From an uncultured Gammaproteobacteria bacterium (GTDB taxonomy: Bacteria > Pseudomonadota > Gammaproteobacteria > Arenicellales > JAANXG01), in NCBI GenBank assembly GCA_947259175.1, contig CAMYKW010000038.1, positions 1-28,894 on the forward strand: a DNA stretch of 28,894 bases. The letters run 5' to 3'. Both the position numbers and the translations under genes were made by a program. Below are positions 2,064 through 28,894 of the stretch, in pieces (the first letter of the stretch is position 1; the number at the start of each line of letters is the position of its first letter). The notes below the pieces were generated by a model that worked only from the letters and a program-made list of their open reading frames with translations, was not told where the DNA came from and searched no databases.

Positions 2064-2542
2064 CCCGACCCCCCGCGCTTGTTGCGGCCTTTATTGATCC
2101 GGGCAGCCAGGTGAATGCCGCGCCGCACCCGGTTGAACGTCCCGCAGCGGCAGATATTGGTGACGTTCGCATCGATGTCGGCATCGCTGGGATCCAGATG
2201 GGCTGCAAGCAGCGCAGCCGCCGTCATGATCATGCCGGGTTGACAGTAGCCGCACTGCGGCACGTCCAGTTCTTTCCATGCCTGCTGCAGTGGATGACTG
2301 TTATCCGCGGAAAGCCCTTCGATGGTGACGACTTCCGTCGATTCGTCGAGTGCGGAGACCGGCACGATACAAGAGCGCATCGCCTTGCCATTGACATGCA
2401 CCGCGCAGGCGCCGCAGATGCCGACGCCGCAGCTGTACTTGGCGCCGGTCAGGCCCAGCTGCTCGCGGAGCACCCACAGCAGGGGGGTCGCCCCGTCGAC
2501 ATCGACGTCGAATAACTTCCCGTTTATCTTCAGTTTAGCCAT
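2060..2542 (-). CDS. (2Fe-2S)-binding small subunit of an IorAB/aldehyde dehydrogenase-type molybdoenzyme
   Basis: The protein starts MAKLKINGKLFDVDVDG. It carries two 2Fe-2S cysteine clusters (SCGVGICGACAVHVNG and QCGYCQPGMIMTA; NICRCGTF). The track ORF 2060..2629 has a spurious N-terminal extension. The true ATG is at 2542, and the stop overlaps the iorB-like start. Confidence 0.9.
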   Translation of the reverse strand: MAKLKINGKLFDVDVDGATPLLWVLREQLGLTGAKYSCGVGICGACAVHVNGKAMRSCIVPVSALDESTEVVTIEGLSADNSHPLQQAWKELDVPQCGYCQPGMIMTAAALLAAHLDPSDADIDANVTNICRCGTFNRVRRGIHLAARINKGRNKRGGSG

Positions 2543-2815
2543 GTTCGGCCCTCTACAGTGAGTACGGGTCTCGCGACCCACAGAGTAAACATCAGAGCAA
2601 AATGATCGAAACGGCAGATTCCGTTGCATCGTCGACTATACGTCATGTCGTCGGAGTCAGCACCCTTTGGCTGTCAAAGACGAGCGCTCTTTTCCCTCAT
2701 CGATGACAACGAGATACGGGTTTTCACCGGCAATCCTGGACATCTTACGGCGCACGCCCGAGGGGGTGTTAAAACATGTAGACGTCGCCCGAAGATATGC
2801 TTGCCGTAAACCGGC

Positions 2816-2839
2816 GGGTCCGGCATTGATGCCGGACCC
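2816..2839 (-). terminator. Perfect GC-rich hairpin just downstream of the vWA gene stop (GGGTCCGGCA-TTGA-TGCCGGACCC). Candidate operon terminator with a weak U-tract.
   Basis: A 10-bp perfect stem with a 4-nt loop, read directly, sits 19 nt past the stop at 2858. There is no strong T-run on the minus strand. Confidence 0.35.
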
Positions 2840-2857
2840 GCTCAACCTCTTTTGCAC

Positions 2858-4057
2858 TCAGTAGGCCGGAGCGGCGGCGTCATACTCCAAACCTAGTTTG
2901 CTCGCCTGCTCGCGAACCGTGTGGTAGATCTGCGTGTCCAGCGAGTCCTCGGCGCCGCCCAGTTGTTTGACCTGTTTCTCGAGATAGGCGGAACGCCGTT
3001 GCGCGAGTTCTTGGATCTCGCCCTTCAGTTCATTGCGCCGCGCCGCGGTTTCGGTAATGACGGCGTTCTGTTCCGCTTCGGACAAGTCGTGTATCGACGC
3101 GGGCAGGTGGTCGCGGGCGATCCCCGACAGATCAACGCGGCCGCTGGTCACATCCTCCACCAGGTCGCCCTCTCCTGCAAGGTTGACGGCGCCGCTTGGG
3201 GAGACGTTGAACGCCGCCCGGCGCGCCCGCGTGCTTATCGAAGAGGTCGCGTGCAACTTTTCCGTCGCCTCGACCTTGTTGTCGTGTTTGACCTTTGCTT
3301 CCGCTGAACCGTAGTACAAGCGGGTGTCATCGAGCTTGCGGGACAATTCCGAGAGCTTCTCGTCAAACGGGCTGATCAACGCGACCGCACTGCCCGATTG
3401 TTCCACCTGGAAATAGCGACCGGCGCCCAGTTGCGCGACCCGTTTCCAGGTCTGCAAGGTGTGCGCATTGCGGCCGCACTGGATGGTGTTGATCACGATG
3501 CCTCTTTGTTTGGCCACCGCTAATGTCTGCGGGTATTTCACATCGTCCTGATAATCCATGTGCGGTGGGGCGTCACCGACCAGGAATACCACCCGGTAGG
3601 TGTTCGGGTCGTGGCTCCAGGACATCTCGTGGACCCCCTCGTATAAGGCCCGGTTCACGCTCTCCGGCCCGTCCCCGCCGCCGGCGGCGCGAAAGTCCAT
3701 CAGCGTCGCGTACATCGAATCCAGATCACTGGAAAGATCCACGACCCGCGTCACATAAGCATCGCCTCGATCCCGGTAGGCGACCAGGCCCATCTTGATC
3801 TCCGGCGCCGACTGCGCCGACGCCAGGGTGCTGGCGATCGACCAGATCTTCTCCTTGGCCGCCTGGATCAGACCACCCATGCTGCCCGTGGTATCCAGTA
3901 CGAACACCACCTCGATCTTGCCGGCCTGGGTTGCCCCCGGTGGGATGGGCAGCGGATCGACTGTCGCGACGGTGCCGTGGCTTTGGGTCAACGGGTACAT
4001 CACCACCGTCCCGGCAGTGAACACAAATAGGGCCAGTGCGAATAGTTTCGATTTCAT
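2858..4057 (-). CDS. Secreted von Willebrand factor A (vWA) domain protein with a C-terminal coiled-coil/low-complexity region
   Basis: The protein starts MKSKLFALALFVFTAGTVVMYPL (signal peptide). It has the vWA MIDAS motif VVFVLDTTGSMGG and a C-terminal ELKGEIQELAQRRSAYLEKQVKQL coiled coil. The GAGGA RBS sits 11 nt upstream of ATG 4057. The track's 616-aa ORF carries an Arg/Gly-rich extension that is not real. Confidence 0.8.
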   Translation of the reverse strand: MKSKLFALALFVFTAGTVVMYPLTQSHGTVATVDPLPIPPGATQAGKIEVVFVLDTTGSMGGLIQAAKEKIWSIASTLASAQSAPEIKMGLVAYRDRGDAYVTRVVDLSSDLDSMYATLMDFRAAGGGDGPESVNRALYEGVHEMSWSHDPNTYRVVFLVGDAPPHMDYQDDVKYPQTLAVAKQRGIVINTIQCGRNAHTLQTWKRVAQLGAGRYFQVEQSGSAVALISPFDEKLSELSRKLDDTRLYYGSAEAKVKHDNKVEATEKLHATSSISTRARRAAFNVSPSGAVNLAGEGDLVEDVTSGRVDLSGIARDHLPASIHDLSEAEQNAVITETAARRNELKGEIQELAQRRSAYLEKQVKQLGGAEDSLDTQIYHTVREQASKLGLEYDAAAPAY

Positions 4058-4077
4058 CTTTCTATCCTCGTGTTCGA

Positions 4078-4647
4078 TTAACGGATTGAAGAAAATTTGC
4101 GCAACGCCGACTCGGCAGCCTGATGCGCCGCCTCGAAGCGGTCGGCGAAGTCCACGGCCGGCGGCCGACCCCGCGTTGGCCGGCGCCAATGGGAGGGGAT
4201 GGCGACGAAAAGCGCCTGTACCAAAAAGAAACACCAGATTCCCAACCACAGGCTGTGGGTTTGCACCCCCGCCCACACCGCGGCCACCAGGGCCAGACCG
4301 TTGAGACCGAGGTCGGCCAGTGCCGACAAGGCACTGGTGTGAAAGTAGAGCGAGCGCACCAACCACACCATGCCCACGTGTGCCACAACGTAGGCCGGTA
4401 ACGGCGGCGCCAGCCACCACGTTGCCGCGGACAGCATCAGCCATACCGCGACCACGGTGACGCGGCCGACGCGCTCCTGGCTGCGCGCCAATAGATAAAG
4501 GATATAGGCGAAGCCGATGCCGGCGATTACCAGACGATGTACGCTGCCGGCGGCGAATAACATCACCGGCACGGTAAACACCGCGGCGCCGAACACGCTG
4601 GCGACCAACGCCACCACCACGCCCTCGAAAAAGCTGGGCCGTTTCAT
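4078..4647 (-). CDS. Polytopic inner-membrane protein (5-6 predicted TM helices) of unknown family
   Basis: Hydrophobic segments VVVALVASVFGAAVFTVPVMLFAAG, LVIAGIGFAYILYLL, VVAVWLMLSAATWWLA, LVAAVWAGV and IWCFFLVQALFVAI. The start ATG overlaps the PspA-like stop (ATGA at 4644-4647). Confidence 0.7.
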   Translation of the reverse strand: MKRPSFFEGVVVALVASVFGAAVFTVPVMLFAAGSVHRLVIAGIGFAYILYLLARSQERVGRVTVVAVWLMLSAATWWLAPPLPAYVVAHVGMVWLVRSLYFHTSALSALADLGLNGLALVAAVWAGVQTHSLWLGIWCFFLVQALFVAIPSHWRRPTRGRPPAVDFADRFEAAHQAAESALRKFSSIR

Positions 4648-5177
4648 GATCGCCCCCTGTTCTGCTTTTCACGCAGAAAGGCCACTTCCACCTCCTCGTC
4701 CCGCACACTAATGTCCGGCGTCATCCACGTTTCATCATTGTCATGGGTGTCCTCCTCGGTAAACAGCTCGACCTTTTGCCGCATGGCGGCCAGGCGGCCA
4801 CGATTTTCCTGCAGCCGCTTGTTGAGCTCGGCGACCGCGTCCTCAGCCGAGTCGTGCTTCTGAGCGAGGACTTTGCGCAGGCGTTCCACTTCCAGCTTGC
4901 GCTTGATCAGGGCGCGGGCGAGATCTTCCTTGTCCGAGGCAAAGCACACATCCAACTCTTCCCCAATCCTCCGCAGTGAGTCGCCGAGGTCGCCGCGGCG
5001 ACCGGCCAACTGCCGGAGTTCATAGGTCAGCACCTTGACCTGCTGCTCGTCGTGGGCGATGTCGTCCTCCATCTCCCGCACCGCCTGCTTGAGCAGGACT
5101 TCGGGCTCCTCGAGCCGGTCAAGGACCGCGTGAAAGTCGGCACGGAACAATCGGGATACGCGGGTAATCAACGCCAT
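4644..5177 (-). CDS. PspA/IM30 (phage-shock protein A / ESCRT-III-like) family protein, short form
   Basis: MALITRVSRLFRADFHAVLDRLEEPEVLLKQAVREMEDDI aligns with E. coli PspA ([35 protein letters not shown]). DKEDLARALIKRK matches EREDLARAALIEKQK. The GGAGGTG RBS sits 6 nt before ATG 5177. The track start at 5186 is a GTG extension. Confidence 0.8.
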   Translation of the reverse strand: MALITRVSRLFRADFHAVLDRLEEPEVLLKQAVREMEDDIAHDEQQVKVLTYELRQLAGRRGDLGDSLRRIGEELDVCFASDKEDLARALIKRKLEVERLRKVLAQKHDSAEDAVAELNKRLQENRGRLAAMRQKVELFTEEDTHDNDETWMTPDISVRDEEVEVAFLREKQNRGRS

Positions 5178-5332
5178 GGTTTGCACCTCCGTTCATGATT
5201 TAGTGAAACATGCAAACAGTTTAGGAACCGTGCGACGCCGACTGTAGGCCGGGTTTGGTAAACGTTTACGCTCCCGGTTTACAAATAATTTACATGTCAC
5301 TGCGCGCCCAAGCTGCTACGCTTTTCAACACC

Positions 5333-6034
5333 ATGGAACGTAAGATTCGCATTCTCATTGTTGAAGACGAGGCCGCAATTCGCACCGGGCTGACGGATGT
5401 CCTGCTGTACCACGGCTACGAAGTTGACGAGGCCGCGGATGGTCCCGCCGGACTCGAGAAGGCGCTAACGGGCACCTTCGATCTGATCCTGCTGGACATC
5501 ATGCTTCCGGGACTGGACGGTTACGAGATCTGCAACCGGATTCGTTCACAGGACCGCGAGCAGCCGATTATCATGCTCACCGCAAAGACCAGCGACGACG
5601 ACATTATTCAAGGCCTGTCGCTGGGCGCCGACGATTACATCGGTAAGCCTTTTTCGGTGGCGCAGTTGGTGTTGCGCATCCAGGCGGTGCTGCGCCGCGC
5701 CCGGATCGGCGTCGATATTCGCAACCATATCCGGCTCGGCGATGACATCGAGGTGGACACGCGCAATCTATGCGGCCGCCGTGGTGGCGAGCGGTTGTCT
5801 TTCACCCGGCGCGAAGTGGAGGTCCTCCAGTACTTGCGCGCCAACTCGGAGCGGCCCGTGTCCCGTGACGAGTTGCTGAGCAAGGTCTGGGGCTACGCGC
5901 GCAATCTGGGAATTGAAACCCGAACCGTAGACATCCACGTCGCCAAGCTCCGGCGCAAGCTCGAATCTGACCCGGCCGCGCCGCGCCATCTTGTTACCGT
6001 ACGCGGGGCGGGTTATCGCCTGTTGACCGACTGA
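5333..6034 (+). CDS. OmpR/PhoB-family response regulator
   Basis: Receiver domain (ILIVEDE...DLILLDIMLPGLDGY...IMLTAK) plus a winged-helix output domain (LSFTRREVEVLQYL...TVDIHVAKLRRKLE...VRGAGYRL). The stop TGA sits 1 nt before the kinase ATG. Confidence 0.9.
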   Translation: MERKIRILIVEDEAAIRTGLTDVLLYHGYEVDEAADGPAGLEKALTGTFDLILLDIMLPGLDGYEICNRIRSQDREQPIIMLTAKTSDDDIIQGLSLGADDYIGKPFSVAQLVLRIQAVLRRARIGVDIRNHIRLGDDIEVDTRNLCGRRGGERLSFTRREVEVLQYLRANSERPVSRDELLSKVWGYARNLGIETRTVDIHVAKLRRKLESDPAAPRHLVTVRGAGYRLLTD

Positions 6035-6035
6035 T

Positions 6036-8117
6036 ATGTTGCGCGGGTCGATCCACACTTGGGACAAAAGGCGGTTGCGGCTGTGGCTGGCGGTGTTCTT
6101 CGCGGCATTGGCCATCCCCACCGGCGTGCTCGTACGCCAGGCCTACAGCCAACTGAAATGGGAGGCGTTCCAGCGCCATCGGGTGATGGCCGAGGAGCTT
6201 GTCAGCCGCATCGACCGGCGATTGATCGAACTGATCAACACCGAGGAGGGGCGTTCGTTCGCTGACTACGCGTTCTTGATCGCCGCCGGCGATCCCGCCG
6301 CCGGTTTCTTACAACGTTCCCCGCTGTCGGTATATCCGGTGACATCGGATATCCCAGGCCTTTTGGGCTATTTTCAAGTCGACGCGCATGGGGTGTTCAC
6401 CACCCCCCTGTTGCCGCAACCGGGTGCGGCGCCGGCGGCTTACGGCGTTTCGCAACCGGAGCTCGGGCAACGCCAGGCGCTGCAAAAGCGCATCCGGGAA
6501 ATCCTGACCGAGAACCGCCTGGTCCATGCCGACGGCAAGGGTCTCACCGATGTACGGCCCGCGTCATCCTACGCACCGTCGCGCGAGGGCATGCCGGCGG
6601 AGACGCGGGCCGATGACGGGGGGTTGGATGAACCCGCGGCGCTCGCGAAAACATTCATCGCCGAGTCAAAGTCGGAGTCGGCGCAGTCCGCGTTCGACCG
6701 CCTCAACGAAGCCGGTGCACCGGCGGCGACCAAACACAAACTGCCCCGGGCCCTGGGTCGCGTGGAGGACATGAAGCTGGACCCGCGTTACCAGGCCAAG
6801 TCGCGCGACGATGCCCCCGCGGCGCCGGTTCTGAGCGACGCCCCGGCGCCCGGCAAGCGTGTCGTGCGCAAGGAACGTGGCGCGCTGCCGGAGCAGCAAC
6901 GGGTTGGCGCGGAGGAAGTACGCGCGCTGGAAACAGCGGCGGAACCCGAATTCCGCATCAGCATCTTCGAAAGCGAGATCGATGCATTCGCGTTTAGTTT
7001 GCTCGACAGCGGGCATTTTGTGCTGTTTCGCAAGGTGTGGCGTGACGGGCAGCGCTATGTCCAGGGCGCGTTGCTCGAACCCGAGGCCTTTTTCCGCGGT
7101 GTAATAGAGTCGGCATTTCGCGCTACCGCGCTGTCCCGGTCCAGCGACCTGGCGGTCGCCTTCCGCGGCAATGTGTTATCGGCCGTCAGCGGTCAGGTCT
7201 CACGCGAGTACCTGTCGAGTACCGAGGAATTGCGCGGCGCCTTGCTTCACCAGGCGCCTTTGTCCGCGCCGTTAAACGATCTGCAACTGGTGTTCAGCAT
7301 TAACCGGCTGCCCGCCGGGCCGGGAGGCATCGTAATCACCTGGGTCGCATCGATTCTGGCGCTGGTGTTGTGCGGCGGGTTTTATCTGATGTATCGCCTG
7401 GCGCTGGGGCAGATCGATCTCACCCGGCAGCAACAGGACTTTGTTTCCGCCGTCAGTCACGAGCTCAAGACCCCGCTCACCTCCATTCGTATGTACGGTG
7501 AGATCCTGCGCGAAGGCTGGGCCGATGACGAAAAGAAAAAGACCTACTACACCTACATCCATGACGAGAGCGAGCGCTTGTCGCGTTTGATTTCCAATGT
7601 GCTGCAATTGGCGCGCATGACGCGGAACGACCTTGCGGTCGACCTGCAGCGGGTTCCGGTCAGTCAACTGATGGACGGCATGCGTTCGAAGGTTGCATCC
7701 CAGATCGAGCGGGCGGGATTCACCTTGAACCTGGACTGCGATGAGGAGACCGGCCGCCGAGTGCTGTCCCTCGACGCCGACTTCTTTACCCAGATCGTCA
7801 TTAATCTGGTGGACAACGCCATCAAGTTCTCCGCCAAAGCTGACCGCAAGGCCATTGACATATGCTGCCGGCGTCTACGGGATGGCGGCGTGCAGTTCGG
7901 CGTGCGCGACTACGGTCCCGGCGTGCCCGGGGAGCAGATGAAGAAGATCTTCAAACTCTTCTACCGCTCCGGGAACGAGCTAACCCGCGAGACCGTAGGG
8001 ACCGGGATCGGCCTCGCGCTGGTGCACCAGCTCACCCGGGCCATGAACGGCAAGGTCGACGTGGTCAATCGCGATCCGGGGGCCGAATTCCGCGTGTCCT
8101 TTCCCGCCGCGCGTTAA
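6036..8117 (+). CDS. Sensor histidine kinase with a large (~390 aa) extracytoplasmic sensor domain
   Basis: TM1 covers residues ~14-34 and TM2 ~424-446. The H-box is SHELKTPLTSIRMYGEIL, the N-box is LVDNAIKFS, and the G-boxes are RDYGPGVP and GTGIGLALV. Confidence 0.9.
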   Translation: MLRGSIHTWDKRRLRLWLAVFFAALAIPTGVLVRQAYSQLKWEAFQRHRVMAEELVSRIDRRLIELINTEEGRSFADYAFLIAAGDPAAGFLQRSPLSVYPVTSDIPGLLGYFQVDAHGVFTTPLLPQPGAAPAAYGVSQPELGQRQALQKRIREILTENRLVHADGKGLTDVRPASSYAPSREGMPAETRADDGGLDEPAALAKTFIAESKSESAQSAFDRLNEAGAPAATKHKLPRALGRVEDMKLDPRYQAKSRDDAPAAPVLSDAPAPGKRVVRKERGALPEQQRVGAEEVRALETAAEPEFRISIFESEIDAFAFSLLDSGHFVLFRKVWRDGQRYVQGALLEPEAFFRGVIESAFRATALSRSSDLAVAFRGNVLSAVSGQVSREYLSSTEELRGALLHQAPLSAPLNDLQLVFSINRLPAGPGGIVITWVASILALVLCGGFYLMYRLALGQIDLTRQQQDFVSAVSHELKTPLTSIRMYGEILREGWADDEKKKTYYTYIHDESERLSRLISNVLQLARMTRNDLAVDLQRVPVSQLMDGMRSKVASQIERAGFTLNLDCDEETGRRVLSLDADFFTQIVINLVDNAIKFSAKADRKAIDICCRRLRDGGVQFGVRDYGPGVPGEQMKKIFKLFYRSGNELTRETVGTGIGLALVHQLTRAMNGKVDVVNRDPGAEFRVSFPAAR

Positions 8118-8245
8118 ATTATTAAACGCCCGGCTTGCGAGACGATACTCCCCTGTTCCTCCGGGTTCGAGTTGACGCCAGTGTAAGCTGGATCCTCAAA
8201 CCCGCAACGGTAAGGCGGCGCAAATGATCGACGCCGACGAGTGCG

Positions 8246-8995
8246 TCACGGTTTTCGCGCCCGAAAGGTAGCGCCGACGGTCGTCTCCGCGGTGCGGTAG
8301 CCGGTGAATGAGACGGTCTCAATGGCCGTAAAACCTGCTTGTGCAAGCATGCCATGGTAGCGCTCCGGCTCGACCGTGCCCGACACGCAGTCGGCCCACG
8401 ACTCGCAAGCCGTCGCTGGCGAGGCGGCCGCGGCGGGATCGCGCACCATATCGGCGAACTGTAAGCGGCCGCCGGGCCGGAGCACGCGGTAGATTTCCTG
8501 GAAGACACAAAGCTTATGCGAGGTGAGGTTGATCGATCCGTTTGAGATCACCACATGGGCGCACGCATCTTCCACCGGAAGGTCCGTCATGTCCGCCTCG
8601 TGTATCTCCAGGTTGTCGACAGCCGCCAATCGCGCATTGTCCCGGGCCTTCGCCACCATCGCCGGCGTGACGTCGACGCCGATGACTCTGCCCTCGTTGC
8701 CGACCAGCAACGCCGCGATACAGGCATCCGCGCCCGCACCACATCCCAGGTCGACGACGGTCTCGCCGGGGTGGATCGGCCCCAGGGCAAACGGATTGCC
8801 CACCGCGGCCGCCGATTCCCACAGCCGGTCCGGCAGCCGATCCAGCCAGGCCGCGTCGTAGCCGTGGCGACCGGCGTTCTGTTTCCCTTTGCCCCAACCG
8901 AAGTCCTGATCCGGCCGCAGCGCCAACTCGGTATACAGCGCATTTATCGCAGCGACCGATTCGTCTTGCGCAACGGCTCTTTTGGCGTCACTCAT
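8246..8995 (-). CDS. Class I SAM-dependent methyltransferase, ArsM/UbiE-like
   Basis: SAM motif I (VVDLGCGAGADACIAALLVG), a post-I acidic motif (RVIGVDVTPAMVAKAR) and VLRPGGRL. There are several conserved-looking Cys residues. ATG 8995 (MSDAKR) was chosen for its AGGG RBS, but 9016 is an alternative start. Confidence 0.75.
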   Translation of the reverse strand: MSDAKRAVAQDESVAAINALYTELALRPDQDFGWGKGKQNAGRHGYDAAWLDRLPDRLWESAAAVGNPFALGPIHPGETVVDLGCGAGADACIAALLVGNEGRVIGVDVTPAMVAKARDNARLAAVDNLEIHEADMTDLPVEDACAHVVISNGSINLTSHKLCVFQEIYRVLRPGGRLQFADMVRDPAAAASPATACESWADCVSGTVEPERYHGMLAQAGFTAIETVSFTGYRTAETTVGATFRARKP

Positions 8996-9171
8996 GCATA
9001 ATGCCCTCATCTCCAAATTGCGTTGAGCGATTTAAAGCTATTACACACCACCGCGCAACACGGTGACGCCGACCGGGTGCACGGCAAACACCCATGCAGG
9101 GCGTTGCCCATCTATCCGGAACTACTTATGATGCACCGGCACCCCGGCCATCCCTGATCAAGAAAATCATT

Positions 9172-10786: not shown

Positions 10787-12355
10787 TTAGGGCCTGTTTT
10801 TCAGATACACGACAGCACGCAATCCGCCGTGCGCAATCACAACGATCAGGGCGATTAGCGCCAGGGCGTAGCCGATGCGGTCGATCCACGGATCGGCATC
10901 GCGCCCGGGGATGTAAACGCCCGCCACGTGTTGCAGACGGCCGTTGTTGCTGTGGCACTCGCCGCAGCGCAGCGCCTCATCGGCCGGCGCCACCATGTGG
11001 GTGATGGGCCAGGACATCTCGGTGGTGACGAATCCGTAGCTGCCGCTGTAGGTGCGGTCAACCGCCTGCATACCCGCGGCGATGGATCGATCCCAGTTCA
11101 GCGTCTTCCAGTAGCCTTGTTTGGTGGTGGTCAGCGGCGTCACCAGGGTCTTCGATTCCACGTCGTACGGCTGCTTGCCGCGCATCACCTTCACCGGCCA
11201 GATGCGCGTGTCCCGCGCTCCCGGCTCGCCGAGGAAGCGATTGATCGGCACTACGCCGTTCGGGTCGATGCGGTCGTCCCGCAGGGTGTAATGCACCGTG
11301 CCGTTGAACCAGCGGTACTCCGGCGCCTGGTGCTTGGCCCACAAGAAGTCTCCCTTCTTCGAGTTGTAGACCTCCAAACCGTTGGCGTCTTCTCTTGAGA
11401 GCTGTTTGCCGTCGGCGCCGAGCTCGCCCGCGGTGGACCAGTCCCACCACATCTTGGTGGCGTAGTCGCCGCGGGAGAACGCCGGGATGTGGCAGGTCTG
11501 GCATGCGATCCTGGCCGTGTGGTCGTTGAGCTTGGGCGTCGAATCGTGGGGCGCCGCGCCGTGGCATGCGCGGCAGGTGGTGCGGTCGCTGCCCGCGCGG
11601 CCCGGCACGCCGACATCCGCGTTATCGACCGCCGTAGGCGTGTAGCGGCTCCCTTTGACCTCGTGCCGGGTTGCGGTATGGCAGGTGGAGCAGGTGAAGT
11701 TCAGCCCTTCCGCATCCATGTGCACATCGACGAAATAATCCGGATGCGCCAGGGTGGGGTCGATGTCGCCGTGCTTCACCGCCTTGGCGCCGCCGCCGGC
11801 GAAATGACAGGTGCCGCAGGTGCGCCGACTCGTCGGTCCGACCTTCTGGGCGAACTGCTCCAGCTTGAGCCGCCGCTTGCCGGGATTGCGCAACTTCTCA
11901 CGGGAATAGAGCCCGGTGGTGTCGTGGCATACCAGGCAATCGACGTGTTCCTCGGAGGCGAAATCGAAGCTGCCGTCGGTCCACCCGTAGCCGATGTGGC
12001 ACTTGGTGCAGGCCGCCATGTTCGGGGCCGCGGCGATGCAGAAGTTGTTCACCACATGTCGTTTGCCCAGCCGCTGGCCGGTCGCCGGGTTGTCGTATTC
12101 CCAGGTCCAGTGCTTGGTCCGGTGGAGCTGTTTGGCGGCGTTGGTGTGACAAGCAAGGCACGCCCGCGTCACCTCGGGGCCCGATGCGAATTTGACCTTG
12201 AGCTCGTCGAACTTGCTGTGATCCGCCGTCGACGAATGCGGCCCGGCGGCTGCGTGCACCGGCGTCGTGACGCTGACCAACCACATCACGATCAGCGACG
12301 CACACAAACGCAAGACCGACGCTTTGAAGTCCGAGTGATTAACTGTTTCGCGCAT
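10787..12355 (-). CDS. Octaheme c-type cytochrome (OTR/ONR-sized, 8 CxxCH) with an N-terminal signal peptide and a C-terminal hydrophobic anchor
   Basis: Eight CxxCH motifs (CLACH, CTKCH, CLVCH, CGTCH, CSTCH, CRACH, CQTCH, CGECH). The signal peptide is LRLCASLIVMWLVSVTTPVHAAA. The C-terminal segment is IGYALALIALIVVIAHGGLRAVVYLKNRP. Confidence 0.85.
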   Translation of the reverse strand: MRETVNHSDFKASVLRLCASLIVMWLVSVTTPVHAAAGPHSSTADHSKFDELKVKFASGPEVTRACLACHTNAAKQLHRTKHWTWEYDNPATGQRLGKRHVVNNFCIAAAPNMAACTKCHIGYGWTDGSFDFASEEHVDCLVCHDTTGLYSREKLRNPGKRRLKLEQFAQKVGPTSRRTCGTCHFAGGGAKAVKHGDIDPTLAHPDYFVDVHMDAEGLNFTCSTCHTATRHEVKGSRYTPTAVDNADVGVPGRAGSDRTTCRACHGAAPHDSTPKLNDHTARIACQTCHIPAFSRGDYATKMWWDWSTAGELGADGKQLSREDANGLEVYNSKKGDFLWAKHQAPEYRWFNGTVHYTLRDDRIDPNGVVPINRFLGEPGARDTRIWPVKVMRGKQPYDVESKTLVTPLTTTKQGYWKTLNWDRSIAAGMQAVDRTYSGSYGFVTTEMSWPITHMVAPADEALRCGECHSNNGRLQHVAGVYIPGRDADPWIDRIGYALALIALIVVIAHGGLRAVVYLKNRP

Positions 12356-12445
12356 ATCGATCACCACAATCGTCCGCCGTCAGGGCCCGGCCACAAACCC
12401 TCTCCGGGCCGGGCTCATCGAAGTTCAGAAAGTTCAGATCAACGT

Positions 12446-13573
12446 CTAGTCCGGAGGCGAGGCCGTGGGTATGCTGCCGTCCTTGTGGAACTGCACGTTG
12501 GCGTCGAGGAAGTAGACCTCGAGGGCGTCGCGCTCCAGTTTGACGATGTCATAAGCTTCGCCGCCGCGTGCGCCGGTGGAGCAGAAAAAGATGATGGGTT
12601 TATCCGCAGGCAACTCACCAACCTTGTCTTGCAGGTCGTCGACCGCCATGACCACCGCCTTGGCGTAGGTCCCATCGGCCTCCACTTCTTCCGGGTCACG
12701 CACATCGTACCAATGGAATTGGTCGGAGTGGTTTTTGATCAGGTTGTTGAACGAGGCGATGGTGATGATCCCGGCCTCTTCACCGGTTTCAATCTTGGCC
12801 GCGTCCGATGGGCTCGCCGCCGCCTTCGCGAGTCCTCCCGCGGCGCCGTATTCCGCCTTCCAGTTCGGATAGCCCGCCTGGAACAGCTTGACGTTGGTGT
12901 AGCCTTGGGCCACGGCCTTGGCGGCGGACTTGGGGCTCAGCGGGCACTTGTAGCCGCCGCAGTAATAGATGAGTTCGGTGGCTTTATCGGCCGGCAGCAT
13001 GTTCAGCTTGGCGTCGAACTCGCGGTTGGAGACGTTGATGGCGCCCGGCACATGGCCCTTTTTGAATTTGCGCGCCGGTCGGGCGTCGACGATGACGGCG
13101 CCGGAAGGCTTATCGACCAGTTTCTTTACATAAGCGGCGCTCACGCCGGTAACGCGTCCGGATTTTTTCCACTCGGGGTAGCCGGCGGCGTACACCTTGA
13201 TGTTGGTATAACCCAGCGCCTCCGCCTTCGCCGCCGACTTGTGGCTGAGCTTGCACTTCAGGCCGCCGCAATAAAAAATCAGCAGCGTCGACTTATCTTC
13301 GGGCAATAGGTGCGTCAGTTTGTCGAACTGGCTGTTGGAGATGTTGATGGCTGGAACGATGTGCCCCTTGTCGTATTTCCTCGCCGGCCGCGAATCGATA
13401 ATCAACACATCGTCTTTTTTCGGGACGGTGGCGTACTGGCTGACGAACTCCGTATCCACGATGTGTTTGTATTGCGCCGCGGTTTGCTGTTGGGTGTCCG
13501 CCGCGGCCGGGAGCGCCGGCACCGCGAGCAGACAGATCAACGCGGCGGTATACAGTGATGTTGCTGGTTTCAC
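12446..13573 (-). CDS. Periplasmic triple-rhodanese (sulfurtransferase) domain protein
   Basis: The GTG start gives MKPATSLYTAALICLLAVPALPAAA (signal), with GAGG 9 nt upstream. There are three rhodanese modules with active-site loops FYCGGLKC, YYCGGYKC and FFCSTGARGG. Confidence 0.85.
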   Translation of the reverse strand: MKPATSLYTAALICLLAVPALPAAADTQQQTAAQYKHIVDTEFVSQYATVPKKDDVLIIDSRPARKYDKGHIVPAINISNSQFDKLTHLLPEDKSTLLIFYCGGLKCKLSHKSAAKAEALGYTNIKVYAAGYPEWKKSGRVTGVSAAYVKKLVDKPSGAVIVDARPARKFKKGHVPGAINVSNREFDAKLNMLPADKATELIYYCGGYKCPLSPKSAAKAVAQGYTNVKLFQAGYPNWKAEYGAAGGLAKAAASPSDAAKIETGEEAGIITIASFNNLIKNHSDQFHWYDVRDPEEVEADGTYAKAVVMAVDDLQDKVGELPADKPIIFFCSTGARGGEAYDIVKLERDALEVYFLDANVQFHKDGSIPTASPPD

Positions 13574-13784
13574 GACAAGTACCTCACTCAATCTGTGCGT
13601 CCCTTCGGGGTGGACTATCCCAGGATTAATAGGCGTTAAATTATATAAGAATATAACCAAATAGCTTTGATCGAGGTCAATGAACGCGGCGATCGCAAGC
13701 GGCTCCGATGACGACGGTCCGCGCCGTTCGTCCATCCCGATAGATCAGGTAAACTGCTCATCGCGATCCAGGAAATGAGTGGTT

Positions 13785-14713: not shown

Positions 14714-16219
14714 ATGAAGACTGCCCCATTGCCAGGCAATGAAACGGCGCGGCTTCGGGCGTTGAAGGATTTCGCCGTTCTCGATACCCCGCCGGAACCC
14801 GCTTTCGATGACATTACTGAGCTCGCCGCTCAGGTTTGCAAACGCCCCATGGCGCTGGTTTCGCTGATCGACGAGGACCGTCAATGGTTCAAGTCCAGGC
14901 GAGGCGTGGAGGCGACCGAGACATCGCGCGATGTCGCCTTCTGCGCCCACGCGATACTGAATCCCGGACACGTCATGGTGGTGGCCGATGCCCAGCGCGA
15001 CGAGCGCTTCGCGGACAACCCGCTGGTAACGGACGAACCCCACCTGCGGTTTTATGCCGGCGCGCCGATGGTGACCGACAGCGGTGAGGTCCTGGGCACG
15101 GTCTGTGTCCTGGATCGCGAGCCCGGTGAGATGAGTCCGGCACAGATCGGCGCCCTGCAGGCGCTCGCGCGTCAAGCCATGGCACTGCTGGAGTCGCGGC
15201 GCACCGACGTCGCGTTACTGCGTGCGGAGCTGGAGAAGGCGCGTTATCAGGTCAAGGCCCTGGAGGGGAGGGTGGCCCTTCAGGGGGGGATGCAAAAAGC
15301 GCTACGCGCGGAGCATTCGTTTCGCGAGGCGGTGGTCGAGCGCGCCGCCGAGGGTATATGTGTCGGCCACAACATTCCCGTGTTCCCCTTCTTCAGGTTT
15401 ACGGTGTGGAACGAACACATGACCGAGATCACCGGTTTCACATTGGATGAGATCAACCGCCGCGGTTGGCTGCGAGTCGTCTGCCCGGATCCGAAGGTTC
15501 AGCGATTGGCGATCGAGCGCTCCAAGCGCATGCGTGACGGGGACGATCTTCGTTATGAGCGCTGGGAGATTACCCGCGCCGACGGACGGCGACGGTCGGT
15601 GCGTCTATCGACCTGTAAATTGAATCTCGCAAAGGATTTGAAGCATTTGCTCATCTTGATGTACGACTGCACCGACGAAGAGAATCTGCAACGGGAGGTG
15701 ATGAGCGGGCGCACGGATACGTTGACCGGGGTAAACAGCCGGCGCACCTTCAGGGAAGAGACCGGACTGCTGATCAGGCTCGCCGCGCGCACCGGCACGC
15801 CGAGTGTACTGGGTATCCTGGACGTCGATGATTTAAAGACCGTCAACGACGAGATGGGACGCGCTGCGGGTGATCTGCTGCTGGCGCGGTTGGGGAAAAC
15901 CCTGCTGGCGTCGACGCGTGCCACCGATGTCACCGGGCGTTTGGGAGATGACGAATTCGGCGTGTTTCTGCCGCAAACCGACACCGCCAACGCGAAGATA
16001 TTCTTCGGCCGATTGCACCGCCGGCTGCTGGATTGGATCCGCGAACAGGAGTGGCCGGTAAACATTAGCCTGGGCGTCGCGGTGTTTCCCGTCGTGCCGC
16101 CGAGCGAAAGCGAGGCGCTGCAATATGCCGACAGCCTGATGCACCGGGCGAAAACGGGGGGTGAGAAGCGCATCGTCTACGCGGAATATCCCGGCGACGA
16201 CACGGGCGAAAACGATTAA
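14714..16219 (+). CDS. GAF-PAS-GGDEF signalling protein with a non-canonical GDDEF active-site motif
   Basis: GAF region (LVSLIDEDRQWFKSRRG...FYAGAPM), a PAS-like middle, and a GGDEF domain with RLGDDEF at 15944-15958. A GGGAGG RBS sits 7 nt upstream of the ATG. Confidence 0.9.
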   Translation: MKTAPLPGNETARLRALKDFAVLDTPPEPAFDDITELAAQVCKRPMALVSLIDEDRQWFKSRRGVEATETSRDVAFCAHAILNPGHVMVVADAQRDERFADNPLVTDEPHLRFYAGAPMVTDSGEVLGTVCVLDREPGEMSPAQIGALQALARQAMALLESRRTDVALLRAELEKARYQVKALEGRVALQGGMQKALRAEHSFREAVVERAAEGICVGHNIPVFPFFRFTVWNEHMTEITGFTLDEINRRGWLRVVCPDPKVQRLAIERSKRMRDGDDLRYERWEITRADGRRRSVRLSTCKLNLAKDLKHLLILMYDCTDEENLQREVMSGRTDTLTGVNSRRTFREETGLLIRLAARTGTPSVLGILDVDDLKTVNDEMGRAAGDLLLARLGKTLLASTRATDVTGRLGDDEFGVFLPQTDTANAKIFFGRLHRRLLDWIREQEWPVNISLGVAVFPVVPPSESEALQYADSLMHRAKTGGEKRIVYAEYPGDDTGEND

Positions 16220-26306: not shown

Positions 26307-27221
26307 ATGACTAACTTGGGATCAGTTTTCGAACAACGGTGCGATGCCGTTCAGTCCTGCAGTGCGATAGAACTACTGATCAGACCACGCGACCGGGATC
26401 TGGGCGGCTTCTCGGTGCGACGGGTGTTGCCGACAAAGGAACGAAAGATGGTCGGCCCTTGGATTTTTTTTGACCATATGGGCCCGGCGGACTTCGAGGC
26501 CGGACAAGGTATCAACGTAAGGCCGCACCCGCATATCAATCTCGCAACCGTGACTTATCTGTTCGAAGGAGAAATCCTGCACCGCGATTCGCTCGGTAGC
26601 CTCCAGAGCATTCGGCCAGGCGATATCAACCTGATGGTCGCGGGCCGGGGAATCGTACATTCAGAGCGCGAAACGCCGGCGGTCACCGCGGAACCGCATC
26701 GACTCCACGGTCTGCAACTGTGGCTCGCCCTGCCCGACGCGGATGAAGAAGTCGAATCGGCTTTCCACCATTACCCGGCCGCAGAAATACCCTCGGTCAC
26801 GGTGGCGGGCGTGTCCCTGCGCGTAATGATGGGTTCAGCTTACGGCGCGACATCGCCGGTCAGGGTGTTCGCCGAGACGCTCTACGTCGAGGCGCATCTT
26901 CATGCAGGCCAATCCATTGCTCTTCCGGATGCCGAGGAACGCGCGGTGTACGTGGCCAGTGGCAGCCTGTCGGCGCGGGGCACGCCAATCCCCGAGCATT
27001 CGATGGCCTTGTTTTCCGACGAAACAGGAATCAGCTTGGAGGCGGAGGAGGAGGCGCGCATCGCGGTGATCGGCGGCGCCAAACTGGGCCGGCGCTATAT
27101 CGAGTGGAATTTCGTTTCCAGCCGCAAGTCGCGGATCGAAGCGGCGAAGGAAGATTGGAGGGCGGGCCGCTTTCCGAAAGTGCCCGGCGACGATAAGGAG
27201 TTTATTCCCCTGCCGGACTAA
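26307..27221 (+). CDS. Pirin-family bicupin protein
   Basis: HPHINLATVTYLFEGEILHRDSLG is the pirin metal-binding cupin motif. The C-terminal cupin repeat is present. An AGGAG RBS sits 7 nt upstream of ATG 26307. Confidence 0.85.
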   Translation: MTNLGSVFEQRCDAVQSCSAIELLIRPRDRDLGGFSVRRVLPTKERKMVGPWIFFDHMGPADFEAGQGINVRPHPHINLATVTYLFEGEILHRDSLGSLQSIRPGDINLMVAGRGIVHSERETPAVTAEPHRLHGLQLWLALPDADEEVESAFHHYPAAEIPSVTVAGVSLRVMMGSAYGATSPVRVFAETLYVEAHLHAGQSIALPDAEERAVYVASGSLSARGTPIPEHSMALFSDETGISLEAEEEARIAVIGGAKLGRRYIEWNFVSSRKSRIEAAKEDWRAGRFPKVPGDDKEFIPLPD

Positions 27222-27330
27222 CATCCGCCCTTATGATCGGTAAGACACACTCGTTGCGGGACGCGGCAGGGTCGCTTATTTAAAGAGAGTTCGGTGCACG
27301 GTGCGGGCATCTGACGCTGATTCTGTGTGA

Positions 27331-27345
27331 TGCAACAATGTTGCA
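27331..27345. repeat. Perfect 15-nt palindrome TGCAACAATGTTGCA, in the intergenic region at the GC-content transition
   Basis: Read directly. It is a candidate protein-binding site or recombination site. Confidence 0.3.
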
Positions 27346-27592
27346 GCGCGATAGGCTGAAGAATACTCGTTGCGTGCCTTCGCAATTTTAGTATCTTCGC
27401 ATTCACGACGCGGAGGAAGCAGGAGTTCTATTGACACGACCCTATGTCCGCTTTTCTTTATTGATATATCTTAATTTATCTCAAGGTATGGTCATGCCAA
27501 TTCAATGGGGCACAATGAATCAGGCCGAGATAAACGACAAATCAGCAGCGGGATTATCGGACACATTTGGGTTCATAAATAGTTAGGTATCA

Positions 27593-28018
27593 ATGAAAGA
27601 ACTTTTGAGACGATGGTTCCTTGTTGTAGCGATAATGATGGCCCAAGGATCCGCAGTACTGGCTGATGACTGTGACGTGAGCTTAGAAAGTCTGTTTTCG
27701 AAGTTATTGGATATAAAAGGAAGAGGAGATGTAGATGCGTTTCTGGAGTTCTTTCATTCGACAGGCAAACTGCTTATGGAGGGAGGGCTCAAAAAGGATC
27801 CTGGGCTAAGGCAGAGAACAATTGACCAATGGAATTACAACCTCGAGATGTATAAGAATTACGAAGTGGCAAATGTTTTTCTGTCTCGGAATTGCATGAT
27901 TGGAATACTAGAATTGTCGAGAAAGAAGGACACGGATTCAGGACCACCGGCTTTAGAGGTATTGTTTGTTAAATTAGTCGGGGGCTGGAAATTCGTATAT
28001 GAAATACACGTAAACTGA
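27593..28018 (+). CDS. Hypothetical small secreted protein encoded in a low-GC (~42%) patch
   Basis: A signal peptide (MKELLRRWFLVVAIMMAQGSAVLA), an AGGT RBS, and codon usage unlike the host. No recognisable family. Confidence 0.55.
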   Translation: MKELLRRWFLVVAIMMAQGSAVLADDCDVSLESLFSKLLDIKGRGDVDAFLEFFHSTGKLLMEGGLKKDPGLRQRTIDQWNYNLEMYKNYEVANVFLSRNCMIGILELSRKKDTDSGPPALEVLFVKLVGGWKFVYEIHVN

Positions 28019-28112
28019 TACCTATTCATTCGAGTGCGACGCTCTGAATCGCGCGCTTCAATGAGACCGTTAGGCGCCATAATTTTTCTCATTCGTGGCT
28101 CCCTCAGTGCGC

Positions 28113-28118
28113 TATAAT
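28113..28118 (+). promoter_or_regulatory. Consensus -10 hexamer TATAAT, 6 nt upstream of the antitoxin ATG. Suggests a leaderless or near-leaderless TA transcript.
   Basis: A perfect TATAAT read directly. TA operons are commonly autoregulated at such promoters. Confidence 0.3.
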
Positions 28119-28124
28119 TGCATT

Positions 28125-28346
28125 ATGAATGAACCTCAAATCGACATTGAGAAACTGGACATCGAGCAACGCTTGCGTCTCATCGAGCGTCTGTGGGACA
28201 GCCTTAGCGGAGATCTGCAAGCCTTTCCATTGACGGCTGGGCAAGAAGCCGAACTTGATCGGCGCTTGGATGAAATGGAAGCTGAAGATGCGGAAGGGAT
28301 ACCATGGGAAGAAGTCATGAAGAGGATACGGGCCCGGTTGGGTTGA
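28125..28346 (+). CDS. Type II antitoxin (putative addiction-module component, TIGR02574-like), partner of a RelE/ParE toxin
   Basis: MNEPQIDIEKLDIEQRLRLIERLWDSL...EAELDRRLDEMEAEDAEGIPWEEVMKRIRARLG is the characteristic small acidic antitoxin pattern. Confidence 0.75.
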   Translation: MNEPQIDIEKLDIEQRLRLIERLWDSLSGDLQAFPLTAGQEAELDRRLDEMEAEDAEGIPWEEVMKRIRARLG

Positions 28347-28636
28347 TTCCCGTCGAGATTCGTCCTGCGGCCGCCGCTGATATCGAAGAAGCGGCTCTTT
28401 GGTATAACTCCCAGCGACCGGGTCTAGGTGTGGAATTCTTGGACGAGCTTGCCTTCGCGCGGCAATCGATAGTTGAGGCGCCTCAAAGATTCCCAGTGGT
28501 CAAGCGGGACACCCGGCGAGCTCTTTTGAGGCGATTTCCATATGCTTTGTATTACCGCGTTTATCGGGACCGCATTCTTATCGTTGCGTGTATGCACGGC
28601 CGGAGGCATTCAAAACGGTGGCAGAGACGCAAATAA
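28304..28636 (+). CDS. RelE/ParE-family type II toxin
   Basis: IPVEIRPAAAADIEEAALWY...FPYALYYRVYRDRILIVACMHGRRH shows ParE/RelE conservation. The start is uncertain: ATG 28304 overlaps the antitoxin by 43 nt, and TTG 28343 overlaps its stop as TTGA. Confidence 0.7.
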   Translation: MGRSHEEDTGPVGLIPVEIRPAAAADIEEAALWYNSQRPGLGVEFLDELAFARQSIVEAPQRFPVVKRDTRRALLRRFPYALYYRVYRDRILIVACMHGRRHSKRWQRRK

Positions 28637-28894
28637 CACCTAAAGCGCTGCAGCCGATGTGCCTACCCGTCACGCAGCTGAGCCTAGACGTTACGTTCAT
28701 CCCGCAAAAGCGGACGCTTAAATTGAGATTGATGATCAGAAGTTCCTGCCGTTTCCGCAAAATATAGTCAAATAGGCGTATGTCCGGATAGGGCAGATTC
28801 TGTTGAAAAACTCGATGATTGAATGCTCGCCATGAGATAATTGTAGCTCCGAGTTTCAAAGGGTTTCTTCCCATGATGGGACACCTACCGGCGC

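Follow-up and report, generated by a model that had tools for sequence, protein, structure and literature searches.

A Conserved Five-Gene Locus Joins a Short PspA/IM30 Gene to Genes for a Six-Helix Membrane Protein, a vWA Protein and a Divergent Two-Component System

What does a PspA/IM30-type gene do in the company of a gene for a von Willebrand factor A (vWA) protein, and which other genes belong with the pair? PspA/IM30/ESCRT-III proteins are central to membrane maintenance. The question is raised by a contig of 28,894 nt from an uncultured gammaproteobacterium assigned to the Arenicellales (CAMYKW010000038.1, assembly GCA_947259175.1), the whole of which we call the window. On its minus strand, three genes encode a short PspA/IM30 protein (here PspA), a membrane protein (here Mem) and a vWA protein, and an initial annotation took these three to be the complete unit. 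We found instead that the genes for a divergently oriented response regulator (RR) and sensor histidine kinase (HK), at 5333-8117, belong to the same conserved unit; the five genes HK, RR, PspA, Mem and vWA are one evolutionary unit that extends beyond the three-gene set first described. On balance we think it fairly probable that they constitute a self-contained envelope-stress or membrane-maintenance module of the Psp type, Lia-like and under two-component control.

Organization of the locus

The pspA-like gene (4644-5177, minus strand) encodes 177 aa and matches PF04012. It is followed on the same strand by mem (4078-4647; 189 aa, with six predicted transmembrane (TM) helices and a predicted cytoplasmic C-terminal helix) and vwa (2858-4057; 399 aa, with Pfam matches given below). 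A 155-nt intergenic region separates pspA from the divergent plus-strand gene for the RR, an OmpR/PhoB-family protein of 233 aa with a receiver (REC) domain plus a winged helix (5333-6034), and the HK gene (6036-8117, plus strand; 693 aa) begins 1 nt past it. The order, strand and tight packing of the three minus-strand genes were as initially annotated, as were their two junctions. The stop codon of pspA and the start codon of mem have ATGA in common (CGA TCA TGA / ATG AAA), and the mem TAA is followed by a 20-nt spacer, TCGAACACGAGGATAGAAAG, in which a GAGGA ribosome-binding site (RBS; 4065-4069, minus strand) precedes the vwa ATG at 4057.

A terminator-like hairpin, GCGGGTCCGGCAT-CA-ATGCCGGACCCGC, lies at 2814-2841 on the minus strand, 16 nt past the vwa stop. 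It had been described as a perfect 10-bp hairpin closing the unit; the hairpin is there, GC-rich, with a stem of 12-13 bp and a weak T tract, and a consensus terminator scan did not call it. An Rfam scan of 2400-8300 also gave no match. The folding energy of the 70 nt past the vwa stop is -33.4 kcal/mol. Across loci, the median minimum free energy of the corresponding region was -29.3 kcal/mol, versus -19.2 kcal/mol in intragenic controls, with values of -25 kcal/mol or lower in 48 of 72 loci.

Co-conservation and distribution

Co-conservation in related genomes had been chosen beforehand as the test on which the grouping could fail, and from two search directions the genes proved to be strictly co-conserved. 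For the first survey a Mem alignment was scanned over one genome per species, giving 190 confirmed matches from which 80 loci were kept; for the second, an alignment of the short-PspA subfamily led to 80 metagenome contigs. Wherever the contig was long enough, the genome loci had RR and HK reading in one direction and PspA, Mem and vWA, in that order, in the other. Clustering of the open reading frames (ORFs) of these loci left only five real families conserved. The remaining recurrent clusters were shadow ORFs over the same five genes, and the flanks varied between loci. Among the metagenome loci, Mem was present in every one that was testable (69/69), as were RR (50/50) and HK (39/39), and vWA was present in 47 of 48. 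When gene calls made independently were labelled with Pfam, the same five genes appeared in a complete genome of Thiorhodovibrio and alongside the most distant relatives of Mem that we reached.

The arrangement is far above chance expectation. About 160 independent loci have the same gene set, and the 4-nt overlap between pspA and mem is kept in 63 of 78. The spacers between mem and vwa are mostly 10-40 nt long across loci. The pspA-mem-vwa genes are an operon, tightly packed and conserved. Cultured carriers include strains of Thiorhodovibrio, Thiocystis, Thiorhodococcus, Imhoffiella, Sedimenticola and Litoribacillus, among them Thiocystis violacea, Sedimenticola hydrogenitrophicus and Litoribacillus peritrichatus, and the five-gene module is widespread among sediment sulfur-cycling Gammaproteobacteria, most of them uncultured.

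Six modules (L011, L013, L018, L027, L065 and P0402) came from bins labelled Halobacteria archaeon, Bathyarchaeota, Flavobacteriales or Bdellovibrio. By tblastn, the proteins of L011 to L065 are 47-67% identical to those of the window, as are those of gammaproteobacterial loci, with the exception of the variant vWA of L011 (see below), and P0402 is 57% identical to another of the metagenome loci, P0268. One "Halobacteria" bin held two near-identical copies of the module (L013 and L018). The odd labels most likely reflect bin contamination rather than spread across domains. Two Thiorhodovibrio loci (L161 and L162) have a DUF4424 gene past vwa in the same orientation (7946/8051-8908); by ORF clustering it is not a conserved neighbour in other loci.

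The control region

We compared 75 pspA-RR intergenic regions. Their most distinctive element is a direct repeat, which in the window is GTAAATTATTTGTAAA (GTAAA-N6-GTAAA, with an 11-bp period) at 5278-5293 on the minus strand. The form GTAAN-N6-GTAAA was found in 74 of the 75 regions, and just 76 times in the 1.6 Mb of locus sequence when both strands were counted, so that it is all but restricted to this region; in the window this is its sole occurrence. Closer to pspA, a promoter-proximal block at 5244-5263 (minus strand) consists of GTTTAC (TTTTACC in the family) and, 13 nt on, GGCCTAC (TGTCTAC in the family). A hexamer resembling a -10 box, TAAACT, follows at 5218-5223 (minus strand; family consensus cTAgacT, or TAnnnT), and the GGAGG RBS of pspA lies at 5186-5190 on the same strand. 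Read across the family, the region has aTGTAAAt-N4-tGTAAA, then TTTTACC at 30-31 nt from the repeat start, TGTCTAC after 13 nt, cTAgacT after about 20 nt, and finally the RBS and ATG. The spacing of 13 nt from TTTTAC to TGYCT was kept in all 67 regions scored.

The direct repeat stands at a constant distance from the elements downstream of it and from the start of pspA, but not from the start of the RR gene (intergenic lengths range from 157 to 496 nt), so the repeat belongs to the promoter of pspA-mem-vwa. Dimers of the OmpR/PhoB family typically bind to tandem repeats with an 11-bp period, and we predict that this repeat is the operator to which the RR would bind and from which it would activate the operon. 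In the window, a perfect palindrome, GTAAACGTTTAC (5258-5269, minus strand), supplies a third GTAAA half-site; most other loci have only a single TTTTAC element.

About 45 nt separate the pspA ATG from the TAnnnT element upstream, which resembles a -10 box and has no good -35 partner. This fits an activator-dependent sigma-70 promoter; a sigma-70 consensus scan found no canonical promoter. Such an activator-dependent promoter would account for the absence of sigma-54/PspF control. The initial annotation had reported no sigma-54 promoter upstream, and the coding strand upstream of pspA indeed contains no TGGCAC-N5-TTGC-like site.

PspA

The PspA protein had been called a short PspA/IM30 starting at a GTG codon at 5186. 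The family assignment holds: the protein matches PF04012 over profile positions 4-137 of 220 (E 5.8e-17), and its 62.5 bits exceed the cut-off of 33.9. The start codon does not; the homologues all open with MALITR and a GGAGG precedes the ATG at 5177 by 8 nt, so this ATG, and not the GTG, is almost certainly the start.

Residues 1-138 align to E. coli PspA(1-144) (4whe, E 5.4e-07) and residues 1-140 to Vipp1. As these alignments run from the first residue, the protein has the amphipathic helix alpha0 and the coiled-coil hairpin of alpha1 and alpha2/3, and the N-terminus is the best conserved portion of the short-PspA family. The canonical alpha4/alpha5 were not found in the window protein, which has 177 aa against about 220 aa and leaves profile positions 138-220 unmatched. 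Its C-terminal part consists of a variable acidic linker and then a strongly conserved motif, DEEVEVAFLREKQ, which can be written for the whole family as (D/E)EEVEVAFLREKQ.

Mem

Mem had been described as a protein with five or six TM segments and of no recognisable family. We likewise found no family for it, and the topology can be refined to six predicted TM helices and a C-terminal helix. The window protein had no Pfam or NCBIfam match, and a Pfam scan of 26 homologues at E <= 10 gave no consistent family. A profile search against PDB sequences returned nothing meaningful, and a fold search found no structural relative. The family is nevertheless large in the sense of sequence clusters, with at least 1442 at 90% identity and at least 955 at 50%. 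Nearly all homologues are stand-alone proteins of about 185-195 aa, and most of the few that are named are called "hypothetical protein".

The AlphaFold2 model of Mem is of low confidence (mean predicted local distance difference test score, pLDDT, 62.8); it has six TM helices, very short loops and a C-terminal helix. The distribution of positive charge suggests that both termini are cytoplasmic. Conservation is concentrated in the predicted cytoplasmic loops 2 and 4 (RSRERVGR and RSLYF), and extends to TM6 (WCFFLVQALFVAIP) and to the C-terminal tail helix (DRFxxAHxxAExA). Two invariant residues, R38 and D112, are both located within TM segments.

The vWA protein

The vWA protein exceeds the cut-offs of three Pfam profiles: VWA_4 (50 bits, cut-off 27), VWA (34.2, cut-off 23.8) and VWA_2 (28.9, cut-off 27). 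It consists of an N-terminal hydrophobic segment, a variable Pro-rich linker, the vWA domain and a conserved helical C-terminal region that ends in Tyr. More than 8000 homologues exist, and conservation is high over the full length. The residues of DTTGS (D55, T57, S59) and D162 are invariant in 32 sequences; they are of the metal-ion-dependent adhesion site (MIDAS) type and predict a metal site.

The AlphaFold2 model is again of low confidence (pLDDT 63.4). With this model, Foldseek matched the vWF A1 domain and integrin I domains over about 190 residues with a probability of 1.0, and the predicted fold is that of a generic vWA domain. Neither a single-sequence nor a profile search against PDB sequences found a relative. 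The C-terminal part, about 170 residues long, has a helical structure and is the best-predicted portion of a poor model. It had been annotated as a long coiled coil; in the model the helical character is retained, and the coiled coil becomes one helix of about 39 residues.

Residues 3-24 form a hydrophobic segment with two lysines before it, from which export of the remainder of the protein is predicted. The initial annotation proposed a signal peptide and a MIDAS motif. A DTTGS of the MIDAS type is present, and the N-terminal stretch may be a signal peptide that is cleaved off or a signal anchor that stays in place; the conserved T14 and Y-P21-22 of the N-terminal helix, followed by the variable linker, would fit an anchor. 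Hydropathy and charge distribution place both the vWA domain and the sensor region of the kinase outside the cytoplasm.

Five loci (L007, L011, L014, L031 and L033) have a variant vWA that is full-length and colinear with the main family and only about 25-30% identical to it. In these proteins the MIDAS motif is DTSGS or DTSSS, and GN replaces the MIDAS GD. PspA, Mem, RR and HK of the same loci are at ordinary divergence. Either the gene was replaced by a paralogue in this clade or it has evolved faster.

The two-component system

The RR carries Trans_reg_C, of the OmpR type. Its best scores are about 200 bits, to RpaB, MtrA and PhoB, all of them under the cut-offs. The HK has TM segments at about 14-36 and at 425-458, enclosing a periplasmic region of about 390 aa that has no Pfam family match and no match in the PDB by profile search. 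HisKA directly follows the second TM segment, with no HAMP match. Both ends of the periplasmic region are conserved and its middle is variable. This middle part (residues ~160-300) is of low complexity and contains the short invariant motifs AFDRL, LGRVEDLKLD and RKExxALPE, which look like docking peptides in what would be a disordered segment.

Comparison with known systems

The functionally closest system is Lia of Bacillus subtilis (LiaIH-LiaGFSR), in which a PspA homologue and a small membrane anchor are under two-component control. Here too a pspA homologue is genetically linked to a two-component system, and sigma-54/PspF control is lacking. The regulator is of the OmpR/PhoB type, however, in contrast to the NarL-type LiaR, and the kinase differs from LiaS, which senses within the membrane, in its periplasmic region of about 390 aa. 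Pfam scans turned up none of the LiaF, LiaG, Toastrack and LiaI-LiaF-TM domains, a vWA protein that is predicted to be exported comes in addition, and the host is a Gram-negative gammaproteobacterium. Given the divergent two-component system and the regulator-type repeat, the module is closer to Lia than to PspABC, though it is not a member of the Lia system.

With the PspF-PspABC(DE) system of the Enterobacteria it has in common the effector family PF04012, with the alignment of alpha0 and the coiled-coil hairpin to E. coli PspA. It differs in having an OmpR-type RR and an HK as conserved neighbours, where there is no PspF/AAA+ activator, and in the absence of a sigma-54 promoter. Neither Mem nor the neighbours matched PspB or PspC (Mem was tested at E <= 10 over 26 family members), and PspA lacks the C-terminal third of the profile and has its own conserved C-terminal motif. 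The module is therefore not canonical PspF/PspABC.

The repeat GTAAA-N6-GTAAA fits the CpxR consensus box, GTAAA-N4-8-GTAAA (PMC5063474), a resemblance at the level of the motif only, and the regulator is from the same OmpR/PhoB family. The RR scores 126.7 bits against a CpxR equivalog cut-off of 341 and the HK 100 bits against a CpxA cut-off of 486; the kinase, with 693 aa, exceeds the 463 positions of the CpxA profile by about 240 aa, and there is no CpxP. Judged by these scores the regulator is not a CpxR orthologue. The repeat also has a TGTAAA/TTTACA core, which is the reverse of the HLR1 half-site of RpaB, (G/T)TTACA(T/A)(T/A) (PMC6525291). The vWA protein has the fold and DxTxS metal-site motif of integrin I domains and vWF A domains; identity to these is 12-20%, and the helical C-terminal region is particular to the vWA family described here.

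The initial annotation stated that canonical psp operons contain no vWA partner. In keeping with this, a PspA-vWA pairing is not mentioned in the main text and one supplement of one Psp phylogenomic survey (PMC11237479) or in the main text of another (PMC9239133), although both surveys set out numerous sets of PspA partners, and full-text literature searches yielded no publication in which PspA is connected with a vWA protein. The PspA papers that were searched contain no PspA module under two-component control that has these two partners.

Proposed function

In the Psp-type envelope module that we propose, the kinase would sense an envelope signal through its large periplasmic region and phosphorylate the regulator, which would bind the direct repeat and activate the sigma-70-type promoter of pspA-mem-vwa. 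PspA would be the cytoplasmic effector, binding the membrane in the manner of ESCRT-III proteins. The translationally coupled Mem would serve as its membrane receptor or anchor, in the role of LiaI or PspB/C, and PspA might dock on the conserved cytoplasmic loops and C-terminal helix of Mem, possibly by way of its own C-terminal motif. The vWA protein would be on the periplasmic face, probably tethered by its conserved N-terminal helix and a flexible linker, where its metal-ion site may bind an envelope ligand or the periplasmic region of the kinase. Predicted topology, translational coupling and patterns of conservation suggest that Mem might physically bridge PspA and vWA. That all three form one trans-membrane complex, in which metal-dependent ligand binding in the periplasm is coupled to ESCRT-III-type assembly or release on the cytoplasmic face, is a bolder proposal that we regard as distinctly unlikely. 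If true, it would be a bacterial integrin-like outside-in link from an adhesion domain to a membrane-remodelling polymer, with its own two-component control.

Several observations weigh against this scheme. Both AlphaFold2 models are of low confidence, and topology and contacts therefore rest on sequence heuristics. Polymer formation like that of PspA and Vipp1 is uncertain because PspA has no canonical alpha4/alpha5. The loci in which vWA has diverged to about 25% identity show no unusual divergence of the kinase sensor, and hence give no support for a tight interface between the two. Information could also flow in the direction opposite to that proposed: PspA, Mem and vWA may act under the two-component system as its effectors, or feed into it as accessory sensors.

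As accessory sensors, vWA, Mem and PspA would form an outside-in complex that reports a periplasmic ligand, a metal or a mechanical state to the kinase; their role would be to supply input or to modulate by feedback, as CpxP, LiaF or DbfQ do, and the true output regulon would be outside this locus. The kinase and vWA alike expose large periplasmic parts, the invariant kinase motifs are acidic and of the kind that a MIDAS site could bind, and small periplasmic modulators are known beside two-component systems, apparently DbfQ among them. We nevertheless consider this rather unlikely as the explanation of the locus. The sole conserved regulator-type repeat keeps a constant distance from the pspA promoter, which makes the operon an output at the least, and in both the Psp and the Lia system a PspA homologue is known to act as effector. 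The lack of co-divergence between the kinase sensor and the variant vWA clade speaks against an accessory sensor as well. The sensor and effector readings are not exclusive and can both hold. An improbable alternative is a stress system for metals, ions or toxic anions, with a TerY-like or BatA/B-like vWA whose MIDAS would sense or sequester periplasmic divalent cations and with protection by PspA as a secondary matter. vWA proteins occur in ter and Bat stress clusters, and the MIDAS motif is invariant in the main vWA family. Against this, no TerD, TerC, TelA, MoxR or DUF58 gene is conserved nearby, the proteins have no Pfam match to these families, and the five-gene set is closed.

The variable flanks of the module are reminiscent of a mobile cassette and could point to a conflict system, directed against phages or otherwise, with a PspA-like protein at its core. 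This is highly improbable, since PADLOC gave weak matches only, of the coiled-coil type for PspA, to receiver domains for the RR (best E 5.9e-06) and one for the HK, and none for Mem or vWA; there is no nuclease, NTPase or toxin domain, and the module has spread vertically in related gammaproteobacterial lineages, with identities that track across the five genes. In the window, genes resembling iorA (2060-2542) and iorB (3-2063) lie directly downstream of vwa on the same strand, and the initial annotation had allowed that vWA might be a CoxE-type maturation factor for this iorAB-like molybdenum oxidoreductase. We reject this reading, whose probability is now close to nil, on the neighbourhood data: iorA adjoins the module in none of the 80 genome loci and in one of the 80 metagenome loci. 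There was also no VWA_CoxE match, vWA has an N-terminal export or anchor segment, and a strong hairpin stands between the vwa and ior units.

Other features of the window

The end of the window (27000-28894) has a G+C content of 0.48, compared with about 0.62 elsewhere. This segment encodes a small protein that is hydrophobic near its N-terminus (27593-28018), and two short ORFs (28095-28346 and 28304-28636) overlap there in an arrangement resembling that of a toxin-antitoxin pair. ARAGORN called a 94-nt tRNA-Pro(agg) at 8849-8942 on the minus strand, within a methyltransferase ORF (8246-9016); its length and location suggest a false positive. Further along are genes for a multihaem cytochrome c with an MtrC/MtrF-like domain (10787-12367, minus strand), a double-rhodanese protein (12446-13735, minus strand) and a GAF-GGDEF protein (14714-16219, plus strand), a combination that fits a sulfur- or metal-cycling sediment gammaproteobacterium.

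Significance

The known partner sets of bacterial PspA (PspBC/PspF, LiaI/LiaFSR, PspM, Band-7 and others) are, to our knowledge, all cytoplasmic or intramembrane. The module described here adds to them a large, strictly conserved and probably periplasmic partner with a predicted metal-ion adhesion site, together with an unclassified family of six-helix membrane proteins. With a predicted operator, a regulator, a kinase and three structural genes within 5.3 kb, it is a compact and testable system, and it could lend itself to studies of the coupling between PspA function and what happens outside the inner membrane.

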